Assembly (NCBI GenBank): GCA_964496975.1
Contig: CAZCBN010000001.1
Location: forward strand, 57,678 to 121,677
From: an uncultured Phycisphaeraceae bacterium
GTDB taxonomy: Bacteria > Planctomycetota > Phycisphaerae > Phycisphaerales > UBA1924
Direction: 5' to 3'
DNA length: 64,000 nt
This document shows, one piece after another, positions 38,892 to 53,050 of the stretch; position 1 is the stretch's first letter, and each line of letters starts with the position of its first letter. Under the pieces are notes generated by a model that had not been told where the DNA came from, did no database searches, and saw only the letters and a program-made list of their open reading frames with translations. The translations under genes and the position numbers were made by a program.

Positions 38892-41084
38892 TCACCGGCG
38901 TCGCTCCATCTCGCGCAGGAGGCTGTAGTAGATCTGCGCCTCACGCGCCCGGCCAATCGTGGACCAGTCGATCTCCGGCGGCGCCGCCGCTTCGATTCGC
39001 CGCAGTCCCTGTTCGAGGGCTGCGACAGGCTGCCGCGGCTGGCGCGCCACGAAGGCCGCTCCGGGAATCAGGGCGAGTGCGGTGACCACGAGGGCGATCA
39101 CCCAGGCCCCGCGTGGCCCTCGCAAGCGTTCCGCTCGGCCGATGGCGGTGATGACGCCGTGCGCGCAGGCCAGCACGAGGGCCGGCCGGAGCATGGCCAG
39201 CAGACGGCCGTGGAGCGGACGCCAGAAATTGAGGCTCTGCACCGGGGACGCGTACGCGTTGAGCGCAGCCGCCGCCACAAACGATCCCGCCCACAACACC
39301 CCGAGCACCGTCAGGTCCGCGCCGACGGGGCCGAGCGAGAGCAGGCTCGAACGCAGGCGCGCGATCCACTCGCGCACCGGCGCCGCGGCGCCAGCCTTGG
39401 CCACGATGACAACGACTGCGGCCGCGCCCGCGGCGACCGCCAGGAGCGGCAGCCCGCCTGTCTCCCCCACGCCGATCAGTCCACCCATCGTCTCGCGGGT
39501 GCCCCACAGCAGAACCGCAGCGGCCCCAATGCCGCCCGCCCATGACCGCAGCGCACGCGGCCGCAGGATCCCATCGGTGGCGAGCAACACGGTCGCCAGC
39601 AAGCCGACGTGGCTCTGGTGCACCAGCGAGAGGCACAGCAGCCACGCGTACGACGCGCCCAGCCGGCCCCGCCAGCGCAGGACGAACACGCCAAGTGCGA
39701 GCAGGTTGAAGTGGTGACGCGGGGTGTCGCCAAAGATGGTGGATGGGGGTCCGGGATTGAGCAGCATCCCGACGAGGTTGCGCCACGAGACGTCCCACGC
39801 GGCCGCGCCCGACGACACGTCCGGCAGCAGCAACAAGCCGCCGCCGACGGCCATCCCGAAGAGCGACAACACATGAAACAGACTGTGCAGCCCGGCGATG
39901 CCCCCCACCGCCGCCGCCAGTGACACCAGCCACCCGGTGTCGCGCAGGGACCAGGCCAGCAGCACCAGGCTGGCGGCCATCAACACCCACGTCGCGGAAT
40001 ACCCCCAGAACATGGCGCGGGCCAGATACGCCGGATAGTCGTGCAGGGGATCCCGGCCCAGCGCCGCCCGGGTGGCGTCGCCCGCCGCCCGGTAGATGAG
40101 CGTCGGGACCAGATAGTTGCCGGCATAGTCCTGTCGCGTGTGGAACCGCCACTGCGTGTTCTCCGAGGCCCCGGCCGCCCGCAACGCGTCGGCCACGCGC
40201 GCATGCGCATCGGCGCTTTCGGCCGCGCGGCCCATCTGAGCGCCGAGGTAATGCAGATACAGCCGGTCATCGTCGGGCCGCAGGCCCGACTCATGCGCGT
40301 ACCCAAGGGCGAGGTGCGCGACCAGCACCACCAGCGCGGCAGTCACGAAGCGACGGTCCGCCGGCGCCGCGGCGACGGCGGGGCGAAGGCGTTCGCTCAC
40401 CAGCACCTGCAGCGCCTGTACACCGTCGCGCCAGCCAATCTTCTTTCCGGCGACACGCGACCGCGGCGCATACGACACCGGCCGTTCGACGATGTGGTGG
40501 CCCGCCCGGAGCAGCCGGGCCGCGATTTGGGGCTCAATGTCGAACCGGTTGGCGGTCAGCGACAGGCCCCGCGCGACCTCGATGCGCATCACCTTGTAAC
40601 ACGTCTCCTGATCAGTCAACGACGCCCCGAACAACACGTTCGTCACCATCGTCAGCACGCGGTTCGCCCAGGCGGTCATCCGCGGCACGCCCGCCGGTGG
40701 CTGGAGGAACCGGGACCCGAACACGACGGCGGACTCTCCGCGCAGAATGGGTTCGACGAGACGGCTGAGGTCCTGGGGGTCCAGTTCGAGGTCGGCGTCC
40801 TGAATGGCGACGACCGATCCGGTCGCCCGTGCCAGTCCCAGGCGAACGGCGGCGCCCTTGCCGCGGTTGCGCGGGGACCTGATGACGATGACTCCCGGCA
40901 CCTCGGCTTCCATCTGGTCCAGAATGTGGCGGGTCTCGTCGGTCGAGCCATCGTCGACGATCAGCACCTCCCGGGGAATCGGGAGGTCGATGGTGAGGAC
41001 CCGATCGATCACGCGCCGGACCGTCCGCGCTTCGTTGTAGACGGGGACGATGATCGACAGGCACTCGTGGCCGGGAGACCGCAC
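38892..41084 (-). CDS. GT2-family glycosyltransferase fused to a large polytopic membrane domain
   Basis: N-terminus LSIIVPVYNEARTVRRVIDRVL..VLIVDDGSTDET..RNRGKGAAVRLGL..VAIQDADLELDP. This is followed by about 480 aa of multiple hydrophobic segments. Confidence 0.8.
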   Translation of the reverse strand: MRSPGHECLSIIVPVYNEARTVRRVIDRVLTIDLPIPREVLIVDDGSTDETRHILDQMEAEVPGVIVIRSPRNRGKGAAVRLGLARATGSVVAIQDADLELDPQDLSRLVEPILRGESAVVFGSRFLQPPAGVPRMTAWANRVLTMVTNVLFGASLTDQETCYKVMRIEVARGLSLTANRFDIEPQIAARLLRAGHHIVERPVSYAPRSRVAGKKIGWRDGVQALQVLVSERLRPAVAAAPADRRFVTAALVVLVAHLALGYAHESGLRPDDDRLYLHYLGAQMGRAAESADAHARVADALRAAGASENTQWRFHTRQDYAGNYLVPTLIYRAAGDATRAALGRDPLHDYPAYLARAMFWGYSATWVLMAASLVLLAWSLRDTGWLVSLAAAVGGIAGLHSLFHVLSLFGMAVGGGLLLLPDVSSGAAAWDVSWRNLVGMLLNPGPPSTIFGDTPRHHFNLLALGVFVLRWRGRLGASYAWLLCLSLVHQSHVGLLATVLLATDGILRPRALRSWAGGIGAAAVLLWGTRETMGGLIGVGETGGLPLLAVAAGAAAVVVIVAKAGAAAPVREWIARLRSSLLSLGPVGADLTVLGVLWAGSFVAAAALNAYASPVQSLNFWRPLHGRLLAMLRPALVLACAHGVITAIGRAERLRGPRGAWVIALVVTALALIPGAAFVARQPRQPVAALEQGLRRIEAAAPPEIDWSTIGRAREAQIYYSLLREMERRR

Positions 41085-41143
41085 GCCGGAGAGCCTATCG
41101 CAAAGTCCTGGACCACAGGCGGCGCGACGCCCGATGGCGTGAC

Positions 41144-41977
41144 ATGATGCGAGGTGACGCCATGAGCGGATTTAATCGCTGCACCTGGGCTCGCGCCGGG
41201 TACGTCGTCTACAACGCCCACGACGTGTACATCGGACAGGCGTTCGAGCGGTACGGCGAGTACTCCGAGATCGAGGCGAGATTGTTGCGGCGGCTTTGCC
41301 CTGCTGGGGGCATCGCCGTGGACCTGGGCGCCAACATCGGCGCACACACGCTGGCGCTCTCGAGCGCCGTCGGGCCGGACGGATTCGTCTATGCGTACGA
41401 ACCGCAGCGCGTGGTGTTCCAGACCCTGTGCGCCAATCTCGCGCTCAACAACATCACGAATGTCGACGCGCGCCAGGCCGCCGCGGGCGCGTCCAGCGGC
41501 ACGGTCCTGATTCCCGATCTGGACTACCGCCGACGTGGCAACTTTGGCGGCGTGGACGTGAGCCGGTTCACGAGCGGCCGGCCGGTCCGGCGGGTGGCGC
41601 TCGACGACGACCTCGATGTGCCGGGCCTGAACCTGCTGAAGGTTGACGTGGAAGGCATGGAGCGGGAAGCGCTGCAGGGCGCCCGGCGGCTGATCGCGCG
41701 GTGCCGGCCCTACCTCTACGTCGAAAACGATCGCCTCGACCGTTCAGAGGCGTTGCTGCGCTGTCTGCTCGAGTGGGACTACCGGCTCTACTGGCACCAG
41801 CCGCCGCTGTTTAATCCCGGCAACTTCCTCGGCGCCACTGAGAACGTCTACCCGGGGATTGTCTCGGTGAACGTCCTGGCCGTGCCCCGCGAGTCGCCGC
41901 AGCCGCTGCTGGGGCTTCCCGAGGTGCGCGATCCTGCCGAACATCCCCTTCGCGCCCGGCCCGAGGCCCCTCGCTGA
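41144..41977 (+). CDS. FkbM-family methyltransferase
   Basis: VDLGANIGAHTLALSSAV..VYAYEPQRVVFQTLCANLALNNITNV..LNLLKVDVEGMEREALQGA. Alternative start at ATG 41162. Confidence 0.8.
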   Translation: MMRGDAMSGFNRCTWARAGYVVYNAHDVYIGQAFERYGEYSEIEARLLRRLCPAGGIAVDLGANIGAHTLALSSAVGPDGFVYAYEPQRVVFQTLCANLALNNITNVDARQAAAGASSGTVLIPDLDYRRRGNFGGVDVSRFTSGRPVRRVALDDDLDVPGLNLLKVDVEGMEREALQGARRLIARCRPYLYVENDRLDRSEALLRCLLEWDYRLYWHQPPLFNPGNFLGATENVYPGIVSVNVLAVPRESPQPLLGLPEVRDPAEHPLRARPEAPR

Positions 41978-43931
41978 ACCACGCGTCAAACAGCGGCCGC
42001 AGTTGCTCGGCGCCGTGGACCGACAGGTGGTCCTGATCCCGGTACAACATGCGCCAGCCATCCCGGTGCCGGCACTCCGATTCGTCGCACAGGTACGGCG
42101 CCGGGTCGAACAGACGCGCGCCGGGCAGGCCGCTGAATGCTTCTGCCAGCGCCGCTCGCGTGGAGGCGGCCCGGACCTCGTGCGCCTCCGTCGCGTACAT
42201 CGGACGCGGCCGCAGGCGCAGGCCGTAGTAGTCAACGATCGCCGCCTTGGCGGGGACAAACGGCATCATCGGCACCTGCAGGAGCACCCCGATGGGCGCC
42301 TGTGTCGCGCGCAGCCCGCCGACCGCACGCGCCAGTGACGACGTGAACGCCGACAATGCCGCAGCGTCCCGTGCTTCGTCCGGCGCGACTTCGTCCACCA
42401 GACGCTGTCGGCGCGCGCCCGAACCGGACGACGGGGCGCCCGACGCGTGGAGGATCCAACGCATCGCGAACATCGTCCCGCGGTAACCGTCGGATTGGCT
42501 GACGGACTGCAAAAACCGGGCGATTGAGTCCGGATCGCCGCCCACGCCGGTCCAGGTACGCGACAGGCACAGCACCTGGAGCCCGCGGTCCCGCGCGGCG
42601 CGTCCGAACGTTTCCCGCAGGCTCTGCGCGTGACTGTCACCGAACAACACCACGAACGGGCCAGAGATGGCCTCCAGCCGGCGCTCGCATGGCCGTGGCA
42701 GCTGCGTCGCCGACGTCATGATCGTCTGGACGTCGGCCGGCAGGGTGGACCCGTCGCGTACGAGTCTCGTGATCGCCAACGACCCGGCGACAAACGCCGC
42801 CAGGACCACCAGACTCATGGCCGGTGAAATGGCGAACCGCCGCCGTTCCACCAGATGATGCGTCGGCATCACGAAGACCGCGAGGACCGCCCCATACCGC
42901 AGGTAGTCGCCGGGCGCCGCGCCAAAATCGGGGTTGGCGTACGTGAACACGCCCAGCACCGGCCAATGCCAGAGGTACGCGGCATAACTGACTCCGCCCA
43001 GGTATTCACCGGTGCGGGGCACCACGCCGTCGCCGCGCCGCCGGGCGGGGTCGGCCGCCAGCAGGCAGACCGCCGTCAGGAGACACACCATCACCGTCTG
43101 CGCATTGGGCCATGTCGTGGCGTCCAGCGTCGCGGTGGCGATCACCGCGAGCCCCAGCGCGCCCGCCGTGAACCACACGTGCCGCGAGCGCTGCAGCCAC
43201 CCGACTCGGGCCCACAGCGGCGCGGCCTGGGCCGCGAGCATGAAGCTGCTGGCGCCCACGAGCAGCTCCCACGCCCGAAACGGTCCGAGATAAAACCGCA
43301 GGGCCTCGTCGGGTGCGTTCAGACCACCCCACGCGGCCACCTGACGCGCGAGCGGCACCAGCGGGCTGGCGTTCGACAGGGCCGGCAGGGTCGCGGCGCC
43401 GGTCACCACCAGGAACAGCCAGACTCCGGACGCTCCGCGCAGAGCCCGCCCCTTCCACAGTCCCGCGAGCAGAAGCGGATAGATCAGATAGAACTGTTCT
43501 TCGACTGCCAGCGACCAGGTGTGCAGCAGCACCTGTGCCGACGGCAGCCCCTGAAAATAGTCAGGATTCCCCTCGGCGAAGAGCAGATTCTGCTGGAGGC
43601 CCCCCTGCCACGCGACGGCGCGCTGCAGCCGGCGCAGATCGGCATCGAGATACAGCCACCAGCCCACCAGCAGGGTGCCCGCCGTCACCACCGCCAGCGG
43701 CGGAACGAGGCGGATGATCCGCCGGTAATAGAACTGCCTGAGGAATCCGGTGACCGACGCCGCGTCGGACTCGAGCAGCGCCTTCGTGATGACGAAGCCT
43801 GAGATGACGAAGAAGATGTCGACGCCGACGAACCCGCCCGCGATGAGGTCGAGGTGTCCGGCGATCACCAGGAGCACCGCCGTCGCGCGGAGGTATTCGA
43901 CCTGATGCATCCGGGGCGAAGCGGCGTTCAT
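41811..43931 (-). CDS. Acyltransferase_3 (OafA-type) membrane O-acyltransferase with C-terminal SGNH-like domain
   Basis: Start MNAASPRMHQVEYLRATAVLLVIAGHL..GVDIFFVISGFVITK. Multi-TM core, then the soluble domain ..FVVLFGDSHAQSL..YRDQDHLSVHGA. The last ~50 codons are an Arg-rich tail antisense to the FkbM gene. Confidence 0.8.
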   Translation of the reverse strand: MNAASPRMHQVEYLRATAVLLVIAGHLDLIAGGFVGVDIFFVISGFVITKALLESDAASVTGFLRQFYYRRIIRLVPPLAVVTAGTLLVGWWLYLDADLRRLQRAVAWQGGLQQNLLFAEGNPDYFQGLPSAQVLLHTWSLAVEEQFYLIYPLLLAGLWKGRALRGASGVWLFLVVTGAATLPALSNASPLVPLARQVAAWGGLNAPDEALRFYLGPFRAWELLVGASSFMLAAQAAPLWARVGWLQRSRHVWFTAGALGLAVIATATLDATTWPNAQTVMVCLLTAVCLLAADPARRRGDGVVPRTGEYLGGVSYAAYLWHWPVLGVFTYANPDFGAAPGDYLRYGAVLAVFVMPTHHLVERRRFAISPAMSLVVLAAFVAGSLAITRLVRDGSTLPADVQTIMTSATQLPRPCERRLEAISGPFVVLFGDSHAQSLRETFGRAARDRGLQVLCLSRTWTGVGGDPDSIARFLQSVSQSDGYRGTMFAMRWILHASGAPSSGSGARRQRLVDEVAPDEARDAAALSAFTSSLARAVGGLRATQAPIGVLLQVPMMPFVPAKAAIVDYYGLRLRPRPMYATEAHEVRAASTRAALAEAFSGLPGARLFDPAPYLCDESECRHRDGWRMLYRDQDHLSVHGAEQLRPLFDAWFSEGPRAGREGDVRQDRAPREAPAAAAATRGARPGRSPRQSPGRRSQWRRGSCRD

Positions 43932-43989
43932 CGCAGACGCGCATTCTACCCGCCGCCGGGGGCGTGAGGCCCTGTGATATGGTCCGGCC

Positions 43990-44796
43990 GTGTCGTCGAC
44001 GCCGACCGATCCGCCCGATCTCTCCGGCAGCATCGTCGTCCTGGCTCACGCGCGAACCGGATCGTCACTGGTGATGCAGACGCTGCGCCTGCTCGGGGCG
44101 CAGGTGCTGGGCGACTTCGCGCGGCCCGACCTGCCGCAGTCGGCGAATCCGAAGGGCTACTTCGAGGATTTGGATCTGCTGCGCGACGGCCTGTCGGCGC
44201 GGGCCCTGGCCGACGCCCCGCGCCTGCTGCGCGGGCGCGCCGTGAAACTGGCGCTGCACCCGCTGGTCCACCGTCGATCGCGCGGCGAGTGGACGGCGTT
44301 GGCGCAGCCCGAGGTCCGGCTCCTGCTGCCGATCCGGACGCCGGCCGAATCGCTGACCTCGCGCCAGGTCTTCCTGCGATCGGATGACCCGCGCGCGCGG
44401 CACGACCTGTTCCACATGTCCGCGCGCAACCGGCTGCTGGATTTCGGGTTTCTCGCCGAGTGGGTTGGCGCGGCGGGGCGCCATCGCCCGGCCCCGGCCG
44501 TCATCGACTACGAACTCGCCATCGCCGATCCCGCGCGGTATGTGGCGCAGGTGGCGGACGCCGCGGCCCTGCAGCCGACCGGCGCGCAGCGGTCCGCGGC
44601 GCTCGACAACATCGATCGGGATCTCTACCGGTTCCGCCTGGCCGGCGACACCGCCACTCGCGCGGCGGCCGGCGTTCGGCCCCTCGAGCGCGTGTATGAC
44701 CTGCTGCGCGCCAATGATCCCGACCGGTGGGCGCGGCTTCGTGACTCGTTGCCGCCCTGGGTGTCCGAGGCGGCACGCGCGCCGCTGACCGACTGA
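43990..44796 (+). CDS. Sulfotransferase-like P-loop protein
   Basis: GTG start. IVVLAHARTGSSLVMQTL resembles the 5'-phosphosulfate-binding loop of Stf0-type sulfotransferases. Confidence 0.5.
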   Translation: MSSTPTDPPDLSGSIVVLAHARTGSSLVMQTLRLLGAQVLGDFARPDLPQSANPKGYFEDLDLLRDGLSARALADAPRLLRGRAVKLALHPLVHRRSRGEWTALAQPEVRLLLPIRTPAESLTSRQVFLRSDDPRARHDLFHMSARNRLLDFGFLAEWVGAAGRHRPAPAVIDYELAIADPARYVAQVADAAALQPTGAQRSAALDNIDRDLYRFRLAGDTATRAAAGVRPLERVYDLLRANDPDRWARLRDSLPPWVSEAARAPLTD

Positions 44797-45663
44797 CTAC
44801 GGCGCCGACGCCCAGTCCGCCCGCGCGGCCTGCCACTGCAGGAACGGCCCGCGGCGGTCTTCCTCCATGGCGTGCAGCGCGGCGGCCGTCACGTTCCACG
44901 GCTTGGGTGGCCCGAGAAAGTGCACGAGTGCGGCGTCGGCCACCGGGACCCGCGGCCGGGTATACCGCGCCATGTGGCCCGCGATGAAATAGTTGTAGTG
45001 TTCGCGAGCCCTCGTCCAGCGCCCCCGGAAGTACCGGTTGAGGATCACGCTGTCGGTGTGCCCTGTCCGCACCCCGGCCCAGGTCTCCGGACGCACCAGG
45101 TCCACCAGATCGCGGAAGGTCGATTCCCCGAGCCGGCCCGGCGCGATCGAGAGCACCCCCGCGTTGAACATCAGGTCGCCGGCACGCGCCTCGAGCGCCT
45201 CCGGTCCGACCTCGGCCGCGACGTACGTCACCGGGTCGCGAATCTGTCCGCGGTAATAACTCTGATCGGGACACGCGAGCAGCGGGGCGTCGGTGGCCGC
45301 CAGCGCGGCGACGGTGCCGGTACAGAGCACGTCGCTGTCGATTTTCAGCACCCGCGCGTACTCGGTAAGGCTGAAGGCGTCGAGCGCAAACAGGATGCGG
45401 GCTTTACGCGCGACCGCGGGCACCTGGTCGGCCGTGGCCGTCACGCGCGCCTTCAGCCGCGCGTCCACCGCGCGGAAGGTCACGTTCGGAAACCGGCGGA
45501 GCGCCTCCACCGCCGCAGGCGGCAGCCCATCGTGGATGATGACAATGCGGCCGGTGAACCACGGGTTGTGGCGCAGGAACGACCACAGCAGCACCAGCGT
45601 CCCCGGCAGGTACGCCTCATCGGTCACCGTGGCCAGGCAGGTTGAATCGGGCGCGGTAATCAA
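44797..45663 (-). CDS. GT8-family glycosyltransferase
   Basis: CLATVTDEAYLPGTLVLLWSFLRHNP.., DxD-type KIDSDVLCTG, and C-terminal HFLGPPKPW. There is no in-frame ATG near the domain start, so TTG 45663 was chosen. The 536-aa track ORF is 5'-extended. Confidence 0.7.
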   Translation of the reverse strand: MITAPDSTCLATVTDEAYLPGTLVLLWSFLRHNPWFTGRIVIIHDGLPPAAVEALRRFPNVTFRAVDARLKARVTATADQVPAVARKARILFALDAFSLTEYARVLKIDSDVLCTGTVAALAATDAPLLACPDQSYYRGQIRDPVTYVAAEVGPEALEARAGDLMFNAGVLSIAPGRLGESTFRDLVDLVRPETWAGVRTGHTDSVILNRYFRGRWTRAREHYNYFIAGHMARYTRPRVPVADAALVHFLGPPKPWNVTAAALHAMEEDRRGPFLQWQAARADWASAP

Positions 45664-45681
45664 TTGAAATTCCCAGTGGGC

Positions 45682-46251
45682 ATGCGCAGAGTCTTCGGCA
45701 TCGGATTCCACAAGACGGGGACGTCGAGCCTCGCGGCCGCGCTGGCGCTGCTCGGCTACCGGGTGTGCCAGGGCGCACGGCCGATTCGCCAGGCGCTCGG
45801 CGTCACCGAAGCCCTCGACCTGCTGCGCCGCCACGAGCTGGACCCGATCCTGCGGGTGGCCGAGCGCTTCGACGCCTGCACCGACAATCCCTGGTTTCTC
45901 CTGTACCGCGAGCTCGACGAGCGCTTTCCGGGGAGCCAGTTTATCCTGACTCATCGGCCGCCGGCCGCGTGGCTCGCGAGCGCGCTGCGGTACTACGGCC
46001 GCAGTGAGACCCCGATGCGGCACTGGATCTACGGGGTCGGCACGCCCACCGGTCACGAGGCCGTTTGGCTTGCGCGGTACGAGCGGCACCTGGCCGACGT
46101 GCGCCGGCACTTCGCCGGCCGGCCGGATGACCTGCTCGAGGCGGACTGGACGCAGGGCGACGGCTGGTCCACGTTGGGCCGCTTTCTCGGGCGGAAGACA
46201 CCATCCCAGCCGTTTCCCCACGTCCGACCGGTTCGCTCCCCGCGCCCCTAG
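45682..46251 (+). CDS. Sulfotransferase-family protein
   Basis: MRRVFGIGFHKTGTSSLAAAL (PAPS 5'-PSB loop-like) and ..FILTHRPPAAWLAS. Same orientation as the PqqD gene and 46 nt upstream of it. Confidence 0.65.
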   Translation: MRRVFGIGFHKTGTSSLAAALALLGYRVCQGARPIRQALGVTEALDLLRRHELDPILRVAERFDACTDNPWFLLYRELDERFPGSQFILTHRPPAAWLASALRYYGRSETPMRHWIYGVGTPTGHEAVWLARYERHLADVRRHFAGRPDDLLEADWTQGDGWSTLGRFLGRKTPSQPFPHVRPVRSPRP

Positions 46252-46297
46252 CACCCCGCGCGGCGGTATGGGATACTTCTGCCCGGGAGCGAGAGGC

Positions 46298-46588
46298 ATG
46301 TCACGCGAACACACCGTGCATCTGGAGTCCGTCATTTCGCGGTCGGAGGAGATCATCTTCACCGACCTGAACGATGACGTGACGATGATGGACGCCAGAA
46401 CGGGCAAGTACTATGCCCTGCCGAAAGTCGGCGGGCGGATCTGGACGCTCCTCGCCCAGCCCATGTCGGTCGCCGCCCTCTGCGATCGTCTCCTCTCCGA
46501 ATACCGCGTCGACCGCAAGCGGTGCGAGGAGGAAGTCTGCGCCCTGTTGGCAGACATGCACACTGCGGGCATCGTCAATCGATCCTGA
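46298..46588 (+). CDS. PqqD-family protein (RiPP recognition element)
   Basis: 96 aa: SEEIIFTDLNDDVTMMDARTGKYYALPKVGGRIWTLLAQPMSVAALCDRLLSEYRVDRKRCEEEVCALLADMHTAGIV, the canonical PqqD pattern. GGGAGCGAGAGG lies upstream of ATG 46298. Confidence 0.8.
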   Translation: MSREHTVHLESVISRSEEIIFTDLNDDVTMMDARTGKYYALPKVGGRIWTLLAQPMSVAALCDRLLSEYRVDRKRCEEEVCALLADMHTAGIVNRS

Positions 46589-46612
46589 ACCGAGTCAGAA
46601 AGGACACCACAC

Positions 46613-46771
46613 GTGGACACCAACGAGCCCCCCGAACGTTTCGCCGAGCCGACGCCTGCGTTGAAGGAGTGGGAAACGCCGACGCTGATCACGGAAGACA
46701 TCGTCGAAGTGACCAAGGGAGGTTCGTTGACCCTGGCCAGCCCGGGGGATGACACCTGGTATCGGTCCTAG
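46613..46771 (+). CDS. Candidate RiPP precursor peptide (52 codons, not in the ORF track)
   Basis: GTG 46613 to TAG 46769-46771, with AAAGGA about 9 nt upstream, 24 nt after the PqqD stop. Peptide: VDTNEPPERFAEPTPALKEWETPTLITEDIVEVTKGGSLTLASPGDDTWYRS. It has a W-x-x-P-x-L leader motif, a T-K-G junction and a C-terminal Ser. Confidence 0.5.
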   Translation: MDTNEPPERFAEPTPALKEWETPTLITEDIVEVTKGGSLTLASPGDDTWYRS

Positions 46772-46786
46772 TCGGCGGCCGCGCCC

Positions 46787-47722
46787 TCAGGCGCCGGCGG
46801 CCGGCGCCACCGCCAGCTCGGCGCGCACCAGCTGCACAAGCTGCGGCAAGTCCGCCAGACGCGTCGTCCGCCTCAACGCCACCACGGGGACACGCGTCCC
46901 GACCGCGACGCACAACCCGAAGTGCGTACGCGATTGGCCAAGCGCCAGAGAGATCGGCCGCCGGTAGGTGCCGGCGGCGACTGCGGGCACCCGCGCCGCG
47001 CCGGTGATGCGCCGCAGTGCCGGAACCTCGCCCGGCGGTCCTTCGAAGACAAAAATCCGATCGATCGGCACCGGTGCGGGCGACGCGGGCTCGAACTCGA
47101 CGTGGTGCTTGCCGCGGACGGCGGCACTGCCGCGTCCCGCGGCCACCCAGGCCAGTGAGTCGGCCTGCAGCCGGAACTGACGCGCGCCGGGGTGGACCTG
47201 CGGGCGGCCGGCCGCGTCGAGCGACACGACCGCGAGATCCTCGGCGATGACGCGATGCGCCCCCGCATGAAACGCGGCGGCCAGCGTCGACTTGCCGGCG
47301 CCCGGCCGACCGGCGAACAACACACAGTGGCCATCCACCTCCACGGCGCTGGCGTGCATCGGCAGCGCCCCTCGCTGGTGGACCAGCGCCGCCATGACTG
47401 AGGACAGCAGGAACAGGCGGACATCCTCGAGCGAGGCGCCCGGCAGCGGCGCGACGACTACCTCGCGTCCCTCCCGAACCCAGTACCTCGCAATCCGCGG
47501 CAGGTCCAGCAGATACTCACCGGCGGCCGCGGCGTATCGCCGGCGCCGGGTCGGCTGCCCCGCGAGATCGAGCGGGGTGTCGCCGTACCGGATGACGACA
47601 TCCGGCTCCGCCTCCGTCGGCATCAGGGCGGGCAGTTCGAGGTCCGACGCGATCGTGACCCCGTGCGCGCGGTAACGGTAGCCGACGACTGGTGCGCCGG
47701 TCGGCTTATCATCGGTCACCAC
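46787..47722 (-). CDS. HprK C-terminal-domain-like serine kinase (HprK-related kinase)
   Basis: PMHASAVEVDGHCVLFAGRPGAGKSTLAAAFHAGAHRVIAEDL is the P-loop context of HPr kinase-like proteins. The N-terminus YRYRAHGVTIASDLELPAL..PDVVIRYG matches the family. A GTG start at 47722 (or 47719) was chosen; the 415-aa track ORF is 5'-extended. Confidence 0.75.
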   Translation of the reverse strand: MVTDDKPTGAPVVGYRYRAHGVTIASDLELPALMPTEAEPDVVIRYGDTPLDLAGQPTRRRRYAAAAGEYLLDLPRIARYWVREGREVVVAPLPGASLEDVRLFLLSSVMAALVHQRGALPMHASAVEVDGHCVLFAGRPGAGKSTLAAAFHAGAHRVIAEDLAVVSLDAAGRPQVHPGARQFRLQADSLAWVAAGRGSAAVRGKHHVEFEPASPAPVPIDRIFVFEGPPGEVPALRRITGAARVPAVAAGTYRRPISLALGQSRTHFGLCVAVGTRVPVVALRRTTRLADLPQLVQLVRAELAVAPAAGA

Positions 47723-47724
47723 GC

Positions 47725-49506
47725 ATGCTGCTCCTGGACGCTGAGCTTGACACACTTCTCGCGGCCATCGCCACCGGCGACGCGCGCGTGGTATCGCCGC
47801 TGTTTGCCGCCTACCTCGCGGCCGAGCCGCGCGCCGGACGAAAGCGGCATCTGGCCGGCCTGCAGTTGCTGGCGCGCGGCCACCGCGGCGAGGCCAGCGC
47901 GAGACTGGAGGCGGCGGCACTCGAGGCGCCGGACGCCGGCGCAATCCGCAACAACCACGGCCATGTGCTGATGCTCCGGGAACAATGGGACGCGGCGGCG
48001 GCGCAGCTGCGCGCCGCGCATGCGCTGCTCCCATCGGCCATCGAACCGCTGGTCAATCTGGCGGACATCCTGGCGCTCTGTGACCTGCCGTCGGAAGCGC
48101 GCCGCGTCCTCGACCGCGCGCTGGCGATCGCGCCCGATCATCCCGACACCGCCCTCCGTCTGCTCCGGCTCAGCCTCCGCCTCTCCGATCAGGCCGGCGC
48201 GGCGCACGCCGCGTCCATCCTGGCGCGCGCGCCGGCGCCGTCGGCCGCCGCCTCGTACGGCCTCGGCCGGTACTGCGAACACATCGGCGATCTGGACGCC
48301 GCCGCGCGCCACTTCTCAGCCGCGGCGGCGATGGGCAGCGGCGCAGCGCACAGCCGCCTGGCCCGGCAGGCGCTCGATCGTCACGACCTGGATGCGCTCA
48401 CCCGCCATGCGGCGCTGGCGACGACGCTGGCACCCGATGACAGTGACGCCTGGCGCGTGCGCGCGCTTTCGCATCAGCTGGACGGCGACCTCGCCGGGGC
48501 GCGGCGCGCGGCCCACCTGGCGTTTGCCTGCAGCCGCCAGACCGCCCGTGACGTCGCCAACTACATCGAGACCCTGGCGTTCGACCTCGGGACCGAGGTG
48601 TCGCTGGCCGGGTACGAGTCGCGCTGGAGCACGCGGACTCCGCAGCCGGAGGCGGCCCGGTCGCGGTTCTCCGGCCGGCGATGGCTGGGCCAGCCTGCCG
48701 GCAGCGACCACGACCTCCTGATCCACACGGAACAGGGACTCGGCGACGCGCTGCAGTACATCCGTTGCGTCAGCGCCGTGCAGGCGCTCGGATGGCGCGT
48801 ACACCTGGCCACTCATCCCGCCCTTCTCCGGTTGCTGGCACGCGTGCCTGGCGTCGCCTCCGTCACCACCCTCGAGGAGGCCGCGGCGCTGCCGTGGCAC
48901 TGCCCGACGGCGAGCCTGCCCTTTGCGGTTGAGCCGCAGCTGGGTGATCCGGCCGCCAGTGTCCCGTACGTGTCGGCCGACCCCGCCGACATCGAGACCT
49001 GGCGGCGCCGGCTCGCGGGCGGCCCGGGGCCCACGGTCGGACTCGTCACCAGCTGCAATCCCCGGCACCCGCGACACGCCCAGCGATCGATCCCGTGGGC
49101 CCTGATCGCGCCGCTCGCGCGGGTCGCAGGCGTGACGTTCGTCCTGATTCAGCCCGACGAGGCGGGCGGCCCCCCGCGGTTTCGCCGCGCGCCCTCGACG
49201 TGGCCGGGCCCGGCGCGACTCCTCGATGTCAGCGATCATGGCGGCGACCTGCTCGAGACCGCCGCCGCAATCGCCGCGCTCGACCTGCTGGTCACCGTCG
49301 ATACCGCCCTGCTCCACCTCGGCGGGGCGCTGGGCCAGCCGGTCTGGGCGTTGCTGTCCGCGTATCCGCAGGCGCGGTGGCTGCCGCGTCCCGGCCGGAC
49401 GTGGTACCCCACGGTGCGACTCTTTCAGCAATCAGTGCCGGGCGACTGGACCGCAGTCATTGAGTCGGTGCGGGCCGAGCTGAGTGCGGCTTACGCCCGC
49501 AAGTGA
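47725..49506 (+). CDS. TPR-repeat protein fused to a GT9 (heptosyltransferase-like) glycosyltransferase domain
   Basis: About 300 aa of TPR-like helices (..ARRVLDRALAIAPDHPDTALRLL..). GT9 part: LLIHTEQGLGDALQYIRCV..VGLVTSCNPRHPRHAQRSIPW..LLVTVDTALLHLGGALGQPVWALL. The ATG 47725 start is uncertain. Confidence 0.75.
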   Translation: MLLLDAELDTLLAAIATGDARVVSPLFAAYLAAEPRAGRKRHLAGLQLLARGHRGEASARLEAAALEAPDAGAIRNNHGHVLMLREQWDAAAAQLRAAHALLPSAIEPLVNLADILALCDLPSEARRVLDRALAIAPDHPDTALRLLRLSLRLSDQAGAAHAASILARAPAPSAAASYGLGRYCEHIGDLDAAARHFSAAAAMGSGAAHSRLARQALDRHDLDALTRHAALATTLAPDDSDAWRVRALSHQLDGDLAGARRAAHLAFACSRQTARDVANYIETLAFDLGTEVSLAGYESRWSTRTPQPEAARSRFSGRRWLGQPAGSDHDLLIHTEQGLGDALQYIRCVSAVQALGWRVHLATHPALLRLLARVPGVASVTTLEEAAALPWHCPTASLPFAVEPQLGDPAASVPYVSADPADIETWRRRLAGGPGPTVGLVTSCNPRHPRHAQRSIPWALIAPLARVAGVTFVLIQPDEAGGPPRFRRAPSTWPGPARLLDVSDHGGDLLETAAAIAALDLLVTVDTALLHLGGALGQPVWALLSAYPQARWLPRPGRTWYPTVRLFQQSVPGDWTAVIESVRAELSAAYARK

Positions 49507-50153
49507 GTCGGGCCGCGACCCGGCTCGTGCCCGGCATACCCAAACGCCTCGATATCTTCGCGATAAGTCACGGCCACCTTCGCTGCCAGGTCGTCGGTGT
49601 AATAACTCGCCGCCGCCTCGTGGGTGGAGGCGTTCAGCTGCGGCAGCGGGCCTGACGGCAGGCCAAGGCGACGGCAGACATGGTCGAAGTCGTCCTGCAG
49701 ACGCTCGAAGCGGCCGATGAAGTCCAGGGACAGGCGGCCGACGGCATCAATCAGAAATGACTGTTGCGCCGCGAACCACGTGTCTGCCCGCGTCCGTTCG
49801 CTCTCGAGCAACAGCGGCAGGTACCGCTGGGGATACGCCTGGAACAGCGGCCGGTGGGCGTTCCGGAAGAACGCGCACGAAATGAACCGATCCCACGGGT
49901 TCCGGACGAATGCAAATTTGAAATAGCCGGACCACGCCTCGGCAGGCAGCCACGGCTGGGCCTCAACCGCGCGAATGTGCCCGTGTCCGATTCGCGCCAG
50001 CGCGTCGATGGGCAGGCGCCGCGACGCTTGCCAGTCGGACTGTTCCCAATCGCGCACCGGATCCAGATGGGGCCGCAGCGCGGCCCGGATGGACTGAGTG
50101 CCGGTCTTCGGGACCGCGAGAAAGATGAACCTCCTGGAGTGGCAGACGATCAT
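49491..50153 (-). CDS. Sulfotransferase family 2-like protein
   Basis: MIVCHSRRFIFLAVPKTGTQSIRAAL (PKxGT-type PAPS loop) and ..FAFVRNPWDRFISCAF. Confidence 0.7.
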   Translation of the reverse strand: MIVCHSRRFIFLAVPKTGTQSIRAALRPHLDPVRDWEQSDWQASRRLPIDALARIGHGHIRAVEAQPWLPAEAWSGYFKFAFVRNPWDRFISCAFFRNAHRPLFQAYPQRYLPLLLESERTRADTWFAAQQSFLIDAVGRLSLDFIGRFERLQDDFDHVCRRLGLPSGPLPQLNASTHEAAASYYTDDLAAKVAVTYREDIEAFGYAGHEPGRGPTHLRA

Positions 50154-50251
50154 GGCACGTCAGACCGACTATACTCCTGCCACACCGTTCAGTCGTGTGT
50201 GTGGAGCCGTTGTTCAGACGGCGCGGTCGTCACTGCGTAGAGGAGATGTCG

Positions 50252-50899
50252 ATGGAAGCATTTATCGGAACGATTCAGGCCTTCGGATTCAACTTTCCAC
50301 CGCGCGGCTGGGCGCCGTGTGACGGACGCCAGCTCTCGATCGCGCAGTGGAGCGCCGTCTTCTCGCTGCTGGGCACCCAGTTTGGCGGCAACGGGCAGAC
50401 CACGTTCGCGCTGCCTGACCTGCGCGGGCGCCACATGGTCAACCAGGGACAGGGCCCTGGCCTGCAGATGTACACGATCGGGCAGACTGGCGGCGCGGAA
50501 AGCACCACGCTGACCCAGGGCCAGATGCCGATGCACACGCACATCGCGGTGGCGCAGCCGCACACCCACTCGACCCAGGCGCACACCCACACCAACACCG
50601 CGACGTCGGCGCTGTTTGCCGAGCGTCTCGCCGGGAATCTGGCCAACCCGAACGGCAACATGATGGCGTCGGCGGCCAACATGTACCTCGCGCCGGCGGC
50701 CCAGAACAACGTGCAGCTCGCGGCCGACTCGATCACCACCGCGGTCACGATTGATCAGGCGGCGGTCACACTCGACCCCGCCACCGTCACCGTCACCAAC
50801 AGCGCGGCCGGCGGCTCCCAGCCGTTCGACAACCGTCCGCCGTACCTCTGCGTGAACATCTGCATCTGCCTCGAAGGCATCTTCCCGTCGCGGAACTGA
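50252..50899 (+). CDS. Phage tail collar domain (MdpB-like) protein
   Basis: MEAFIGTIQAFGFNFPPRGWAPCDGRQLSIAQWSAVFSLLGTQFGGNGQTTFALPDLRGR, an HTH-rich middle (MPMHTHIAVAQPHTHSTQAHTHT), and the C-terminus GGSQPFDNRPPYLCVNICICLEGIFPSRN. Confidence 0.8.
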   Translation: MEAFIGTIQAFGFNFPPRGWAPCDGRQLSIAQWSAVFSLLGTQFGGNGQTTFALPDLRGRHMVNQGQGPGLQMYTIGQTGGAESTTLTQGQMPMHTHIAVAQPHTHSTQAHTHTNTATSALFAERLAGNLANPNGNMMASAANMYLAPAAQNNVQLAADSITTAVTIDQAAVTLDPATVTVTNSAAGGSQPFDNRPPYLCVNICICLEGIFPSRN

Positions 50900-50906
50900 C
50901 GCGCCG

Positions 50907-52040
50907 ATGTCCCTGGGCCGTTCCGGCCCGCTCCGCGTGGGCGTGTTGCCGCCAGGTTCGAGTTTCGTGCCGCTGCTGGCAGAGGATCTGCTTGCGGCCT
51001 TGGAACTCGGCCTGGCGGACGCGGGCGTGCCGGCTGAACTCGTGGCCGAGTTCGCCGACCACAATGCCGACCCGAAGGTGGTCGCGCCGAAAGCGCAACA
51101 ACTGCTCGTCGGTCAACGATGCGCGTGCGTGGTCGCGCCCCTGAACGTCTCGTTGATGGAGCGGCTGGCGCCGAACTTCCAGTTCCGGAACAGCCCGCTG
51201 CTGGCCCTGACCCTCGGCGAAGACCCACTGTTCGACACCGCGCGCAATCCCTGCCTGTTCGTGCACAGTCACCAGCTGTGGCGCGCAGCCTGGATGTGCG
51301 GGTACCTCGGCGTCCGTCGCTTCGGCCCCCGCGCGGCGATGCTGCTGGGCCTGCACGACGGCGGCTACGGGCTGGCGTTTGCGTTCCAGCTGGGCCTGGA
51401 GGCCGCGGGCGGAGAGGTGGCCCACGTGGCCGTGACGCACCGGCACTCGCGCCGTGACGATCCGAGCGACGACATCGCGGCGGCGTTGCGCGCGACCCCC
51501 GACTTCGTGTGGGCGGCCTACTCCGGTCTCGAAGCCATCTCGTTCCTGCAGGCCTACGCGCGACGGCCCGGCCTGGCCGCGCTGCCCATCATCGGGCTGT
51601 CACCGCTGGTCGAGGATCACGTCCGTGCCGGAGTGGGCGCCGCCGCGGCCGGCCTGCACATCGTCACCCCCGGTCCGTCGTCGGCCGACCAGCATGCCCT
51701 CACGCTCGCGCTGACGAAGGCGCTGACGCGCCGGCCGCATCCGTATGTGGTGCTGGCGTACGAATCCGCGCGACTCCTCGGTCTGGCGGCCGGACGTGTG
51801 GCCGGCGGCCAGGCCGATCTGCCGGCCGCGCTCCGCGACGTTGCGTTTGACAGCGCCCGCGGCGCGGTGCGGTTTGACGATGGCGTCGAACGTCCAATCC
51901 CGTTCTGCCTGCGACGGATGACCGCTGACGGCGAAACCGTCGACGATGTCGACGGGGTGCCCGCCCTCGACGAGCAATGCGGCGCGGCCCGCCGCAATCT
52001 CGTCAAGCAGGGTTGGGTCAATCCCTACCTCTGCGCGTGA
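50907..52040 (+). CDS. Type I periplasmic-binding-protein-fold (LivK/AmiC-like) protein without signal peptide
   Basis: 377 aa. LRVGVLPPGSSFVP.. and an alternating alpha/beta pattern. No hydrophobic N-terminus. Fold assignment is tentative. Confidence 0.45.
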   Translation: MSLGRSGPLRVGVLPPGSSFVPLLAEDLLAALELGLADAGVPAELVAEFADHNADPKVVAPKAQQLLVGQRCACVVAPLNVSLMERLAPNFQFRNSPLLALTLGEDPLFDTARNPCLFVHSHQLWRAAWMCGYLGVRRFGPRAAMLLGLHDGGYGLAFAFQLGLEAAGGEVAHVAVTHRHSRRDDPSDDIAAALRATPDFVWAAYSGLEAISFLQAYARRPGLAALPIIGLSPLVEDHVRAGVGAAAAGLHIVTPGPSSADQHALTLALTKALTRRPHPYVVLAYESARLLGLAAGRVAGGQADLPAALRDVAFDSARGAVRFDDGVERPIPFCLRRMTADGETVDDVDGVPALDEQCGAARRNLVKQGWVNPYLCA

Positions 52041-53050
52041 TGACCGTCCACGCGTCACCGCCTCGCACGGTCCTGTTTGCCGACGGCCTGGTGGCGCAGC
52101 CGACGATGGAGGCCCTGCTCGGCGCCGGGTGGGTGGCCGGACTGGTCACGCCGCGTGCGTCAGTCGAGGCCTCGCCACTGCGCCTGCTGGCGCGTCACCA
52201 GTCGGTCCCCGTGCTCGACGTCACCCGCGCGGATCTTGCGGCCGGCATCGACACCTGGCTGCAGACCTGCCGGCCGGATCTGGTGTTGTCGATCGCGTTT
52301 CCCTATCGCATCCCCGCGTCGCTGATCGCGATGCCGCCCCTGGGCGCGTTCAACGTACACGGCGGACGTTTGCCCAGGTATCGCGGGCCGCAGCCGGTGT
52401 TCTGGCAACTCGTCAATCAGGAGTCCGAGGGCGCCGTCGCCGTACACCTCATGGACGAGGCGTTCGATCGCGGCCCGGTGGCGGTGTCGCACCCGATCCC
52501 GATTGATCCGGACGACACCCATGGCCTCCACACCGTCCGCGTGGCCTTCGCCGCGGTGGCCGCGGTCCGGGCCCTGTGCGCGGCCCTCCTCCAGTTCGGC
52601 CGCCGCCTCCCCCTCGAGCCGCAGGAGGAAGCCGCCGCCGGCTTTCAGCGGCGGCCGGCCTACGACGACCTGGTCATTCGATGGGACCAGCACACGGGGC
52701 GTGACATTCGCGCACGCGTCAAGGCGGGAAACCCGTGGAACCACGGCGCGTTCACCTCGCTCAAGGGCGTGGACCTTCGACTGACCGACGTGACGCTGAT
52801 CGAAGGCGCCGGCCGGCCGTCGGCCGCCCCCGGTGAGGTGCTGGCCGTTCACGCCGCTGACGGCGTGTTGATCAACTGCCGGGACGGGTCGGCGCTGCGC
52901 GCCGACGTGATCTCCCTGCGCGAAGGACTGCTGCCGGGACGCGCGCTGGCGGCCTTCGGGGTGACGGCGGGTGATTGCTTCACGCCTCCGGTGTCGACCG
53001 GACCGGACGCCGGCGCTCGAGGTCCTGCCACACCGCCTCGAGCGTCGTAA
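52040..53050 (+). CDS. Fmt/ArnA-like formyltransferase (N- and C-terminal domains)
   Basis: The start overlaps the upstream stop (TGATG). PDLVLSIAFPYRIPASL..GAFNVHGGRLPRYRGPQPVFWQL..HLMDEAFDRGPV (N..H..D catalytic pattern), plus a Formyl_trans_C-like end. Confidence 0.8.
   Translation: MTVHASPPRTVLFADGLVAQPTMEALLGAGWVAGLVTPRASVEASPLRLLARHQSVPVLDVTRADLAAGIDTWLQTCRPDLVLSIAFPYRIPASLIAMPPLGAFNVHGGRLPRYRGPQPVFWQLVNQESEGAVAVHLMDEAFDRGPVAVSHPIPIDPDDTHGLHTVRVAFAAVAAVRALCAALLQFGRRLPLEPQEEAAAGFQRRPAYDDLVIRWDQHTGRDIRARVKAGNPWNHGAFTSLKGVDLRLTDVTLIEGAGRPSAAPGEVLAVHAADGVLINCRDGSALRADVISLREGLLPGRALAAFGVTAGDCFTPPVSTGPDAGARGPATPPRAS

Follow-up and report, generated by a model that had tools for sequence, protein, structure and literature searches.

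What does a small gene make when its product has the leader of a lasso peptide precursor, but a core that breaks the rule by which lasso rings are closed? The question is raised by an open reading frame (ORF) of 52 codons plus stop at 46613-46771(+) in a 64,000-nucleotide stretch of DNA (the window) from an uncultured Phycisphaeraceae bacterium (GenBank assembly GCA_964496975.1, contig CAZCBN010000001.1, positions 57,678 to 121,677). The initial annotation, made from the sequence alone, proposed that the ORF looks like a lasso-type precursor, that its acidic residues are at core positions 11 and 12 instead of 7-9, and that its core offers hydroxyl sites for phosphate, sulfate or sugar. The observation itself was confirmed in every detail. 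Translation gives VDTNEPPERFAEPTPALKEWETPTLITEDIVEVTKGGSLTLASPGDDTWYRS*; there is no in-frame Met, the start is GTG at 46613, and a Shine-Dalgarno-like AAAGGA at 46599-46604 lies 8 nt upstream. With cleavage after T34-K35, the predicted core is GGSLTLASPGDDTWYRS (17 aa, 46718-46768), which has D11 and D12 as its only acidic residues, contains 3 Ser, 2 Thr and 1 Tyr, and ends in Ser. The leader (residues 1-35, 46613-46717) carries W20-E-T-P23-T-L25 (46670-46687), which matches the described [Y/W]xxPx[LVI] motif bound by RiPP recognition elements (RRE) (PMC13381572), and T34 at position -2; the L25 to T34 spacing is 9.

Is this ORF a gene? A word-indexed protein search with the peptide found only the peptide itself, whereas an exhaustive phmmer search of 1.84 billion proteins found small-peptide relatives down to E=6.9e-10; two RCC1-like repeat proteins (P0065 and P0067) and another repeat protein (P0072) were discarded as spurious hits. 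The ORF was also called as a gene in independent assemblies, and a family hidden Markov model (HMM) hits only this ORF in the six-frame translation of the window (E=2.5e-23; next best 1.5). Samples ERR3494947, ERR3494954 and ERR3494961 carry this contig. A scan with a degenerate DNA pattern yielded 7 true loci out of 10 hits in genomes (L012, L013 and L015 were chance hits; L numbers denote loci retrieved in these searches), 10 out of 14 in metagenomes (L025, L028, L031 and L035 were chance hits) and none in viral contigs. A search of genome contigs for related loci with the neighbouring kinase found nothing, a search of solved structures with the peptide profile gave only a chance hit, and literature searches for the core motif strings found nothing. 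Codon comparison with two homologues shows 12-13 synonymous-only codon changes at conserved residues, including Ser TCC<->AGC. Both conditions that had been named in advance as refuting the gene fail: there is a translation signal, and homologous loci show conservation rather than drift or frameshifts.

The relatives form a rare, unnamed family of about 40 distinct sequences from Bacteroidota, Sphingomonadales and Gemmatimonadales, with the shared pattern WxxPxL-(8-9)-T-x-GG-x7-G-D-[DN]-x-W-Y-x-S-stop. W20, P23, T34, G36, G37, G45, D46, W49, Y50 and S52 are conserved across phyla, with W20 and P23 of the leader motif invariant in the family, and P44 is conserved in the main group; in core numbering, the conserved residues are G1, G2, P9, G10, D11, D12, W14, Y15 and the terminal Ser. 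The WxxPxL leader and the GDD.WY.S C-terminus, which the initial annotation expected to be the conserved parts, are indeed the conserved ones, and the anomaly of the core is not a quirk of one sequence: D11 is invariant, D/N12 is nearly so, and nothing acidic is conserved at positions 7-9. The interpretation offered in the initial annotation is supported, with two refinements. First, the Leu-to-Thr spacing of 9, noted there as shorter than the usual 10, is not odd for this subgroup: the family varies between 8 and 9, and the closest characterised class, the paeninodin-like peptides, has Trp at -15 (PMC13381572), against -15/-16 here. Second, this locus was found to have no cyclase or B2 protease at all, while relatives do; so the question of ring size applies to the family, and this locus may make no ring.

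The neighbours of the peptide point to lasso-type machinery. Directly upstream and in the same orientation, with its stop 24 nt before the GTG, is a 96-aa PqqD-family protein of the lasso B1 type (46298-46588(+); Pfam PqqD 59 bits, cutoff 23.4), which falls just short of the NCBIfam model lasso_PqqD_Bac (NF033536; 78.8 bits against a cutoff of 80). Its best solved relative is PbaB1 of a paeninodin-like lasso pathway (9X90, E=3e-13, 53 bits); the RRE of the linear polyphosphorylated peptides (LPP) scores lower (9X8Z, E=5e-4; LppB, 23.6 bits). Convergent with the peptide, with stop codons 15 nt apart, is a 311-aa HprK-like kinase (46787-47722(-)) with hits to Hpr_kinase_C and ScmC (PF27840) and a motif H..GxxGxGKS..[DE]D that aligns with relatives. 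However, the first Asp of the catalytic DD pair is Glu here, as it also is in the kinase of L020, and the protein scores far below the curated cutoffs of named families. Assignment to the HPr-rel-A system (TIGR04352/TIGR04353) was rejected, because the kinase reaches 46.4 bits against 200 (HprK_rel_A) and the PqqD protein 30.4 against 35; the SynChlorMet system was rejected as well, as scores were far below cutoffs and no radical-SAM partners are present. A PqqA reading was also ruled out: 'EVT' is followed by K-G-G rather than x-Y, so there is no E-x3-Y crosslink pair, E and V are not conserved in the family, and no radical-SAM PqqE or PqqB/C gene was found in the window.

Upstream of the PqqD gene is a Sulfotransfer_4 sulfotransferase (45682-46251(+); Pfam 116 bits), the first gene of a Sulfotransfer_4-B1-precursor string. 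Its orthologues lie next to the peptide in L004, L011 and L038, and one is fused to the B2 protease in L021, which ties this sulfotransferase type to the peptide. A glycosyltransferase of family 8 (GT8; 44797-45663(-)) is a recurrent neighbour of the family and also occurs in L004, L014, L019, L029, L030 and L036. The 268-aa protein at 43990-44796(+) has no family hit, but it contains a P-loop HARTGSS, is 68% identical to a syntenic L004 gene and is fused to Sulfotransfer_4 in L005; it is probably another sulfotransferase. Two Asp/Asn beta-hydroxylase genes are present at 38299-38868(+) and 53900-54973(-), the latter with an uncertain start, and this enzyme family recurs beside the peptide family. 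A promoter and terminator scan was uninformative in this high-GC DNA.

Where are the ring-forming enzyme and the leader protease? In every informative related locus that we found, the peptide sits with a PqqD chaperone (B1) and an Asn-synthetase-like cyclase. Cyclase-like genes accompany it in L004, L011, L014, L020, L021, L029, L036 and L038, and they score as well on the lasso cyclase model as a canonical one (248-378 bits against 258; the L011 gene has 260 bits to NF033535). B2 is present in two loci, the Gemmatimonadales cluster L011 (65 bits, cutoff 33) and L021. These loci also carry an HprK-like kinase (55% identical to ours in L004), sulfotransferases, Asp/Asn beta-hydroxylase, JmjC, Trp-halogenase-like enzymes and GT8. 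In contrast, the locus studied here has neither cyclase nor B2 from 46 kb upstream to about 24 kb downstream: no SGGxDS motif was found in any frame of the window, tblastn found nothing, profile HMM searches at maximum sensitivity gave best E values of 3.9 for the cyclase and 1.0 for B2, a Pfam sweep of the whole window found neither, and about 7 kb beyond its right end has neither; no cyclase was found in L023. No leader peptidase candidate (SipW-like, B2 or C39 domain) was found near the peptide.

One explanation for this absence is decay, in which, after loss of the cyclase, B2 and other tailoring genes, the peptide, PqqD and kinase genes would be non-functional leftovers inside an unrelated exopolysaccharide locus. 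On the one hand, the window lacks the cyclase, JmjC and one hydroxylase relative to the syntenic L004 cluster, and gene content in this cluster family is fluid; for example, L004 has only a 51-aa remnant of the GT9 gene. On the other hand, the peptide retains the family-conserved residues although it is only about 54% identical overall to the L004 peptide, the PqqD, kinase, Sulfotransfer_4 and GT8 ORFs are intact, with coding-type GC3 and preserved motifs, and the spacing is tight and operon-like, with no pseudogene debris at the 15-nt junction where the cyclase would be. Thus, we consider decay unlikely.

Another possibility is that the product is a true but atypical lasso peptide. In this view, B2 would cleave at T34-K35|G36, the cyclase would join G1 to D11 in an 11-residue macrolactam of about 34 atoms, W14/Y15 and the modified C-terminal Ser would act as plugs, and the cyclase and B2 would be encoded away from the locus. 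T34, G36, G37 and D46 are invariant, the spacing G1-D11 is fixed in the main group, the T-K|GG junction is the same as in microcin J25, the Trp at -15/-16 is like W-15 of PbaA, and the adjacent bulky W-Y resembles steric-lock pairs; the cyclases and B2 proteases of relatives are also consistent with this reading. However, natural lasso rings characterised so far have 7, 8 or 9 residues (PMC13352647), only 6 residues follow D11, which leaves a loop of about 2 residues, and a divergent subgroup (P0068, P0099) has the DD pair at 13-15, so ring size would not be fixed. Furthermore, lasso genes are normally clustered, and the PGDDxWYxS block resembles the non-ring C-terminal tail of paeninodin, PDEDVHYDS. 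An 11-residue ring made by enzymes encoded elsewhere thus remains possible, but we regard it as the less likely reading.

A canonical 9-residue ring could be obtained only with non-canonical cleavage behind the invariant Gly-Gly, as was already pointed out in the initial annotation; the core would then be SLTLASPGDDTWYRS, with ring S1-D9 and the conserved Thr at -4. The invariant GG and the fixed 7-residue spacer, which makes D11 into D9, are compatible with this, and in the Bacteroidota members W/P/L would be at -17/-14/-12, the canonical lasso spacing. However, the residue after GG, which would be ring position 1, is highly variable (S, T, N, M, D, P, A, I), whereas G36 behaves like a typical invariant G1 with Thr at -2. 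The ABC transporters in L009 and L021 have no C39 double-glycine peptidase domain, which makes double-glycine (PCAT) cleavage unlikely, the closest characterised RRE class uses Trp at -15 rather than -17/-18, and the window still lacks a cyclase. This reading is therefore improbable.

Our preferred explanation, held with no more than even confidence, is that the ORF is the precursor gene of a conserved, uncharacterised branch of the kinase-tailored, paeninodin-like lasso lineage, and that, because the cyclase and B2 are absent here, its product in this organism is most likely a non-lasso (linear) phospho/sulfo/glyco-peptide made inside a polysaccharide-type locus. What the analysis establishes is a genuine coding gene under amino-acid constraint, a leader with the WxxPxL motif and an invariant T-x-GG junction, the arrangement with the PqqD and kinase genes, the association of relatives with cyclase and, in two loci, B2, and the absence of both enzymes within -46/+24 kb; translation of the ORF, the cleavage site, binding, phosphorylation and every other modification are inferred from sequence and from analogy. 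In the inferred mechanism, the PqqD protein would bind W20/P23/L25 and present the peptide to the kinase, which would (poly)phosphorylate the C-terminal Ser52, as PadeK, ThcoK and SyanK do on linear precursors; such kinases act on the C-terminal Ser before cyclisation, aided by B1 (PMC8498205; PMC9266682; PMC10368454). The putatively co-transcribed Sulfotransfer_4 and the other sulfotransferases, the Asp/Asn beta-hydroxylases (likely on D/N12 of the PGD[DN]xWY motif) and GT8 would add further groups, with Tyr50, the new hydroxyl or the phosphoserine as candidate sites. The calculated mass is 1781.822 Da for the linear core and 1763.811 Da for its lactam; a phosphate would add 79.966 Da and a sulfate 79.957 Da. 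The phosphosite could instead be Ser3 of the core, as in BsfA and LppA, and the hydroxylases and sulfotransferases could act on a tail-collar protein or on glycans (Iyer et al. 2010, PMC2938197). Moreover, every other informative locus of the family has a cyclase, so a linear end product would be the exception, and the region searched covers only 64 kb (plus about 7 kb) of a 145.9-kb contig, so that a cyclase and B2 could be encoded elsewhere in the genome.

How does this compare with known systems? With the paeninodin-like peptides (paeninodin PadeA/PadeK; ThcoA/K; SyanA/K, where SyanA is the one characterised proteobacterial kinase substrate (Zhu et al. 2016, FEBS Lett); pseudomycoidin) it shares the WxxP leader with Thr at -2, a discrete PqqD B1, an adjacent HprK-like kinase, an obligatory C-terminal Ser, in which all family members end, sulfotransferase and NTP-transferase genes in relatives, and a C-terminal acidic-aromatic block. 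It differs in the position of the invariant acid, in a core of only 16-18 aa and in the extra enzymes of the family (Asp/Asn beta-hydroxylase, JmjC, two Trp-halogenase-like enzymes, GT8 and a CmcI-type methyltransferase). The window also lacks the cyclase, B2, NTP-transferase and exporter: no NTP_transf_5 HMM hit or ABC tblastn hit was found in it, whereas both are present in L021. With canonical class II lasso peptides (e.g., microcin J25 and the Sphingomonas canadensis cluster L009) it shares the leader/core layout, the T-x|G junction and, in relatives, the B1/B2/C genes, but it differs in the acceptor position, the very short post-acceptor tail and the missing C and B2 at this locus.

The LPP of Bacillota (Popov et al. 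2026, PMC13381572) would be a functional parallel: there, an RRE and an HprK-like kinase act on a leader-bearing peptide without a macrolactam cyclase, in capsule loci, and the locus here likewise combines an RRE and an HprK-like kinase without a cyclase in a polysaccharide-type locus. However, LPP leaders carry YxxPxVLxHQxIxFETxxS, whereas the leader here is WETPTLITEDIVEVTKGG, and LPP cores are long, variable and phosphorylated at Ser3. LPP clusters have a SipW-like signal peptidase, an NTP-transferase and an MsbA exporter, none of which was found here (no signal-peptidase family hit among the roughly 50 window ORFs scanned with Pfam, a set without short or atypical ORFs). The RRE in the window is much closer to the lasso B1 than to LppB, and the relatives of this peptide do have cyclases.

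This locus suggests that kinase-tailored lasso pathways can lose the cyclase while keeping the leader, RRE and kinase logic inside glycan loci, first reported in 2026 for Bacillota and seen here in a high-GC organism with an unrelated peptide family. Because lasso genome-mining tools and the working rule of the field assume an acceptor at core positions 7-9, a conserved family with lasso B1/B2/C genes and an invariant acid at position 11 is likely to be overlooked; if it does cyclise, it would extend the known range of ring sizes or reveal a different use of the lasso cyclase. Its small size, sharply defined invariant residues and unusually rich set of tailoring enzymes make it a tractable target for heterologous expression. 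More speculatively, and in our view less likely than not, the GG-x7-GDD-x-WY-x-S peptides may define a new structural class derived from lasso machinery. It could be the first natural lasso or lariat with an 11-residue macrolactam, its oversized ring locked by enzymatically enlarged plugs (halogenated or hydroxylated Trp, sulfo-Tyr and a phospho-glycosyl C-terminal Ser). Alternatively, as this cyclase-less locus suggests, a lasso leader/RRE/kinase module could have been recruited into a polysaccharide locus to make a linear phospho-/sulfo-glycopeptide, whose C-terminal phosphoserine might serve as the attachment or priming point for a glycan; this would be an independent, non-Bacillota parallel to LPP.

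The window also resembles the neighbourhoods of beta-hydroxylases, sulfotransferases and tail-collar proteins described by Iyer, Abhiman, de Souza and Aravind (2010, PMC2938197), as it combines two Asp/Asn beta-hydroxylases, at least four sulfotransferase-like genes and a phage tail-collar domain protein (50249-50899(+); Pfam Collar 90 bits). That study proposed the collar or collagen-like proteins as the substrates and did not describe a PqqD/kinase/small-peptide module. The collar protein is a possible co-substrate or partner here, and although its membership in the system is uncertain, a Collar gene also sits inside the canonical kinase-lasso cluster L009.

The stretch at 46613-46771 on the plus strand translates to VDTNEPPERFAEPTPALKEWETPTLITEDIVEVTKGGSLTLASPGDDTWYRS, followed by a stop codon. 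This ORF has no in-frame ATG and starts with GTG at 46613; an AAAGGA sequence at 46599-46604 lies 8 nt upstream, and the ORF begins 24 nt after the TGA of the preceding gene. If cleavage follows T34-K35, the core is the 17-mer GGSLTLASPGDDTWYRS, which has acidic residues only at positions 11 and 12, three Ser, two Thr, one Tyr, and a C-terminal Ser, whereas the spacing from L25 to T34 is 9. Every factual element of the initial annotation is correct.

Several lines of sequence evidence show that this is a real gene. Gene callers predicted exactly this 52-aa product in three independent assemblies and in an NCBI contig of 145,870 bp; however, those DNA copies are 100% identical to the window and therefore add no evolutionary information. 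An exhaustive phmmer search of 1.84 billion representatives identified ten genuine small-peptide relatives, with a best E-value of 6.9e-10, and a profile search of the 5.8-billion-protein collection identified 30. A degenerate DNA pattern recovered the family in named genomes (Flavobacteriales MAGs, a Vicingaceae MAG, Acidiluteibacter ferrifornacis, Sphingorhabdus sp. 109, a Parasphingorhabdus MAG, and a Gemmatimonadales MAG) as well as in marine metagenome contigs. All members share WxxPx[LIV], then a spacer of 8 or 9 residues, then T-x-G-G, seven residues, G-D-[DN]-x-W-Y-x-S, and the stop; none of them carries a functional name. In comparison with the homologues in two related loci, L004 (a 9.6-kb contig) and L011 (from Gemmatimonadales), 12-13 codons differ only synonymously at conserved residues, including changes between TCC and AGC for Ser. 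The family HMM hits this ORF alone in the six-frame translation of the window (E=2.5e-23; the next best hit has an E-value of 1.5). Two outcomes had been named beforehand as grounds for rejecting the gene, namely the lack of a translation signal at the GTG and random drift or frameshifts across homologous loci, and neither was found. The expectation that the WxxPxL leader and the GDD..Y..S end would be the conserved parts is borne out.

Upstream of the peptide gene are a gene for a 268-aa conserved protein (43990-44796, plus strand), which is probably another sulfotransferase, a GT8 gene (44797-45663, minus strand), and a Sulfotransfer_4 gene (45682-46251, plus strand; 116 bits), the latter directly upstream of a gene for a PqqD-family protein (46298-46588, plus strand). 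The PqqD gene is upstream of and co-oriented with the peptide gene; its product scores 59 bits against the Pfam model and 78.8 bits against the NCBIfam model lasso_PqqD_Bac, which has a cutoff of 80. The best solved relative of this protein is PbaB1, the RRE of a paeninodin-like lasso pathway (9X90, E=3e-13), and it is much further from LppB, the RRE of the cyclase-less LPP system (9X8Z, E=5e-4). Downstream, a gene for an HprK-like kinase (46787-47722, minus strand; Hpr_kinase_C and ScmC/PF27840) is convergent with the peptide gene, with the two stop codons 15 nt apart, and the kinase keeps the H..GxxGxGKS..[D/E]D motif. The annotated start of this kinase gene at 47722 overlaps by about 30 nt with that of the divergent TPR-GT9 gene, whose longest ORF begins at 47692 on the plus strand; the true GT9 start is probably further downstream.

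The surrounding 38-71 kb is a long glycan-type locus, which contains GT2, GT4, and GT9 genes, Wzy_C, an FkbM methyltransferase, an AT3-SGNH acyltransferase, a formyltransferase, two more sulfotransferase-type genes, two Asp/Asn beta-hydroxylases, and a phage tail-collar protein. The first 38 kb holds unrelated genes. Elsewhere in the window, there are two large MacB_PCD/FtsX permease genes (21688-24891 and 33722-36403), one of them paired with a PadR regulator, and a gene for a BlaR1-M56/CarboxypepD_reg/TonB_C protein (7160-9034), features that are typical of Acidobacteriota/Gemmatimonadota-like genomes.

Related loci show what such a cluster may contain. The L004 kinase is the closest homologue of the window kinase (55% identity), and the 9.6-kb contig is syntenic with the window, with the 268-aa protein (68% identity), GT8, Sulfotransfer_4, PqqD, and a clearly homologous peptide (MADEEAVSDSNRTELKEWETPTLISEDIDRVTRGGMQNFKSPGDDVWYQS); it also has a 619-aa Asn-synthetase-like gene between the peptide and the kinase, a JmjC gene, and extra hydroxylases. 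A 51-aa ORF in L004 (867-1022, minus strand) matches only the C-terminal end of the TPR-GT9 protein of the window (47692-49506) and appears to be a remnant, which shows that gene content in this cluster family is in flux. The Gemmatimonadales locus L011 has B2 (65 bits, cutoff 33), PqqD, a flavin monooxygenase/halogenase-like gene, the peptide, Sulfotransfer_4, the cyclase-like gene, and the kinase; a second, shorter HprK-like paralogue (221 aa; 6802-7467, minus strand) lies directly upstream of the main kinase. We also examined 20-kb views of low-GC (34-43% GC) metagenome contigs whose peptides match the Bacteroidota type. One of these, L020, shows the kinase, Sulfotransfer_1, PqqD, the peptide, two JmjC genes, a CmcI-type methyltransferase, two Trp-halogenase-like genes, and Asn_synthase, whereas L021 has a Sulfotransfer_4::B2 fusion, an Asp/Asn hydroxylase, an ABC exporter, NTP_transf_5, the peptide, JmjC, the methyltransferase, two halogenase-like genes, and Asn_synthase. 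The fusion is a single 358-aa protein (L021 4939-6015, minus strand) that joins a Sulfotransfer_4 domain homologous to the product of window 45682-46251 to a lasso B2 transglutaminase-like peptidase, which implies that the sulfotransferase works on the peptide. Further cyclase-linked loci are L014, L029, L036, and L038. The cyclase-like genes score best on the curated lasso cyclase model, with 248-378 bits; this is below its cutoff of 525 bits but matches the 258 bits of the cyclase in a canonical kinase-type lasso cluster of Sphingomonas canadensis (L009). One or two Trp-halogenase/flavin-monooxygenase-like genes accompany the peptide family in several phyla (L011 1606-3099; L020 14543-17648; L021 12205-15293; L022, another related locus, 5342-6883), which suggests modification of the invariant Trp, although the window has no such gene near the peptide. 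By genomic association, the family is therefore lasso-derived and heavily tailored.

Some loci carry two or three precursor paralogues, which is typical of RiPP clusters. The Parasphingorhabdus locus L017 has three in tandem (640-801, ~1139-1300, and 1971-2171, all on the minus strand) and L022 has two (9577-9804 and 9980-10159); these vary at core positions 3-9, while the GDDxWYxS end is kept. The closest relative of the window peptide (P0063, 62% identity; L008 378-542) sits on a 3.8-kb contig beside phage-like genes (DUF1353 and lysozyme) and a Zn-metalloprotease fragment, with no PqqD gene in the 380 nt upstream. A scan of viral contigs found no family member.

In contrast to these clusters, the window has no cyclase and no B2. 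No SGGxDS motif occurs in any frame, and tblastn searches with four cyclases and two B2 proteins found nothing. Profile HMMs built from six cyclases and three B2 proteins and run with all filters off gave best E-values of only 3.9 and 1.0, respectively. A Logan contig from the same population extends the view about 7 kb beyond the right end and shows only glycosyltransferases, an acyltransferase, and methyltransferases. Homologues of the JmjC, halogenase-like, NTP-transferase, and ABC-exporter genes are also absent from the window. Among loci with enough flanking DNA, this is the only one without a cyclase. One possible reading is that the locus is a decaying remnant, which we consider improbable; the 15-nt gap between the peptide and kinase stop codons, where L004 has the cyclase, contains no debris.

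There are two possible readings of where the leader is cut. On the one hand, cleavage at T-x|GG would give a conserved G1 with Thr at -2, which is the classical B2 recognition pattern, and would put Trp at -15/-16, close to W-15 of the paeninodin-like PbaA. The ring acceptor would then have to be D11, and the resulting 11-residue ring, followed by only six residues, would be outside the 7-9 range of all characterised natural lasso peptides (PMC13352647). The view in the initial annotation that this core does not fit the lasso ring rule is supported. An 11-residue-ring lasso matured by enzymes encoded elsewhere is the main rival to the explanation that we favour, although it remains tentative. 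On the other hand, cleavage after GG would give a canonical S1-D9 ring; however, ring position 1 would then be a highly variable residue, Thr would move to -4, and no C39-type double-glycine peptidase is present. We judge the first cleavage site to be more likely than the second, and a GG-cleaved lasso with a 9-residue ring appears improbable. Also relevant is the resemblance of the conserved C-terminal block PGDDxWYxS to the non-ring tail of paeninodin, PDEDVHYDS. Its calculated [M+2H]2+ of 1209.504 matches the 1209.50 reported in PMC5067487. The conserved acids may therefore be recognition or modification sites and not ring acceptors. Position 12 is D or N, which, by inference, fits the dual specificity of Asp/Asn beta-hydroxylases. 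In a divergent subgroup, the DD pair shifts to positions 13-15, which argues against a strictly fixed ring.

The gene, its conservation, its neighbours, and the absence of a cyclase and B2 from the window are established by the sequence analysis, whereas the binding, phosphorylation, and tailoring steps of the mechanism that we propose are inferred. In this view, the PqqD protein would bind the WxxPxL leader, and the HprK-like kinase would phosphorylate the invariant C-terminal Ser on the linear precursor; this is what PadeK, ThcoK, and SyanK do, and B1 proteins stimulate such kinases. Sulfotransfer_4, inferred to be co-transcribed here and fused to B2 in L021, would act on the peptide, with Tyr50 in an acidic context as a plausible site, and the Asp/Asn hydroxylases and GT8 would add further groups. 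Because the cyclase and B2 are absent, the product in this organism is most likely not a lasso. This mirrors the LPP system reported in 2026, in which an RRE and an HprK kinase act without a cyclase inside capsule loci; however, the peptide is not a member of that family, as the leader motif, the peptidase, and the RRE type all differ. We hold this composite explanation with about even confidence.

We found no paper that contains the core motif or describes this peptide family, although identity with the subgroup of SyanA, the one characterised proteobacterial kinase substrate, is not excluded. The cluster type appears only as a list of co-occurring annotations in a Pontixanthobacter comparative study. 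The Sphingomonas-type precursor from L009 is unrelated in its core and has acids within the canonical range, at core position 7/9 or 8/10 depending on where the core starts. The finding is a precursor family of the lasso lineage with a non-canonical core, seen here in a cyclase-less configuration.

The hydroxylases and sulfotransferases may also have a competing target, the tail-collar protein. The region at 38299-55000 is unusually dense in sulfotransferase-type genes, with at least four (43990-44796, 45682-46251, 49491-50153, and 52980-~54000), and it also has the two Asp/Asn beta-hydroxylases (38299-38868 and 53900-54973) and the phage tail-collar domain protein (50249-50899). This combination matches the neighbourhoods of beta-hydroxylase, sulfotransferase, and tail-collar genes of Iyer et al. 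2010, for which the tail-collar protein was proposed as the target. A collar gene also sits inside the canonical kinase-type lasso cluster L009 (9367-10002).
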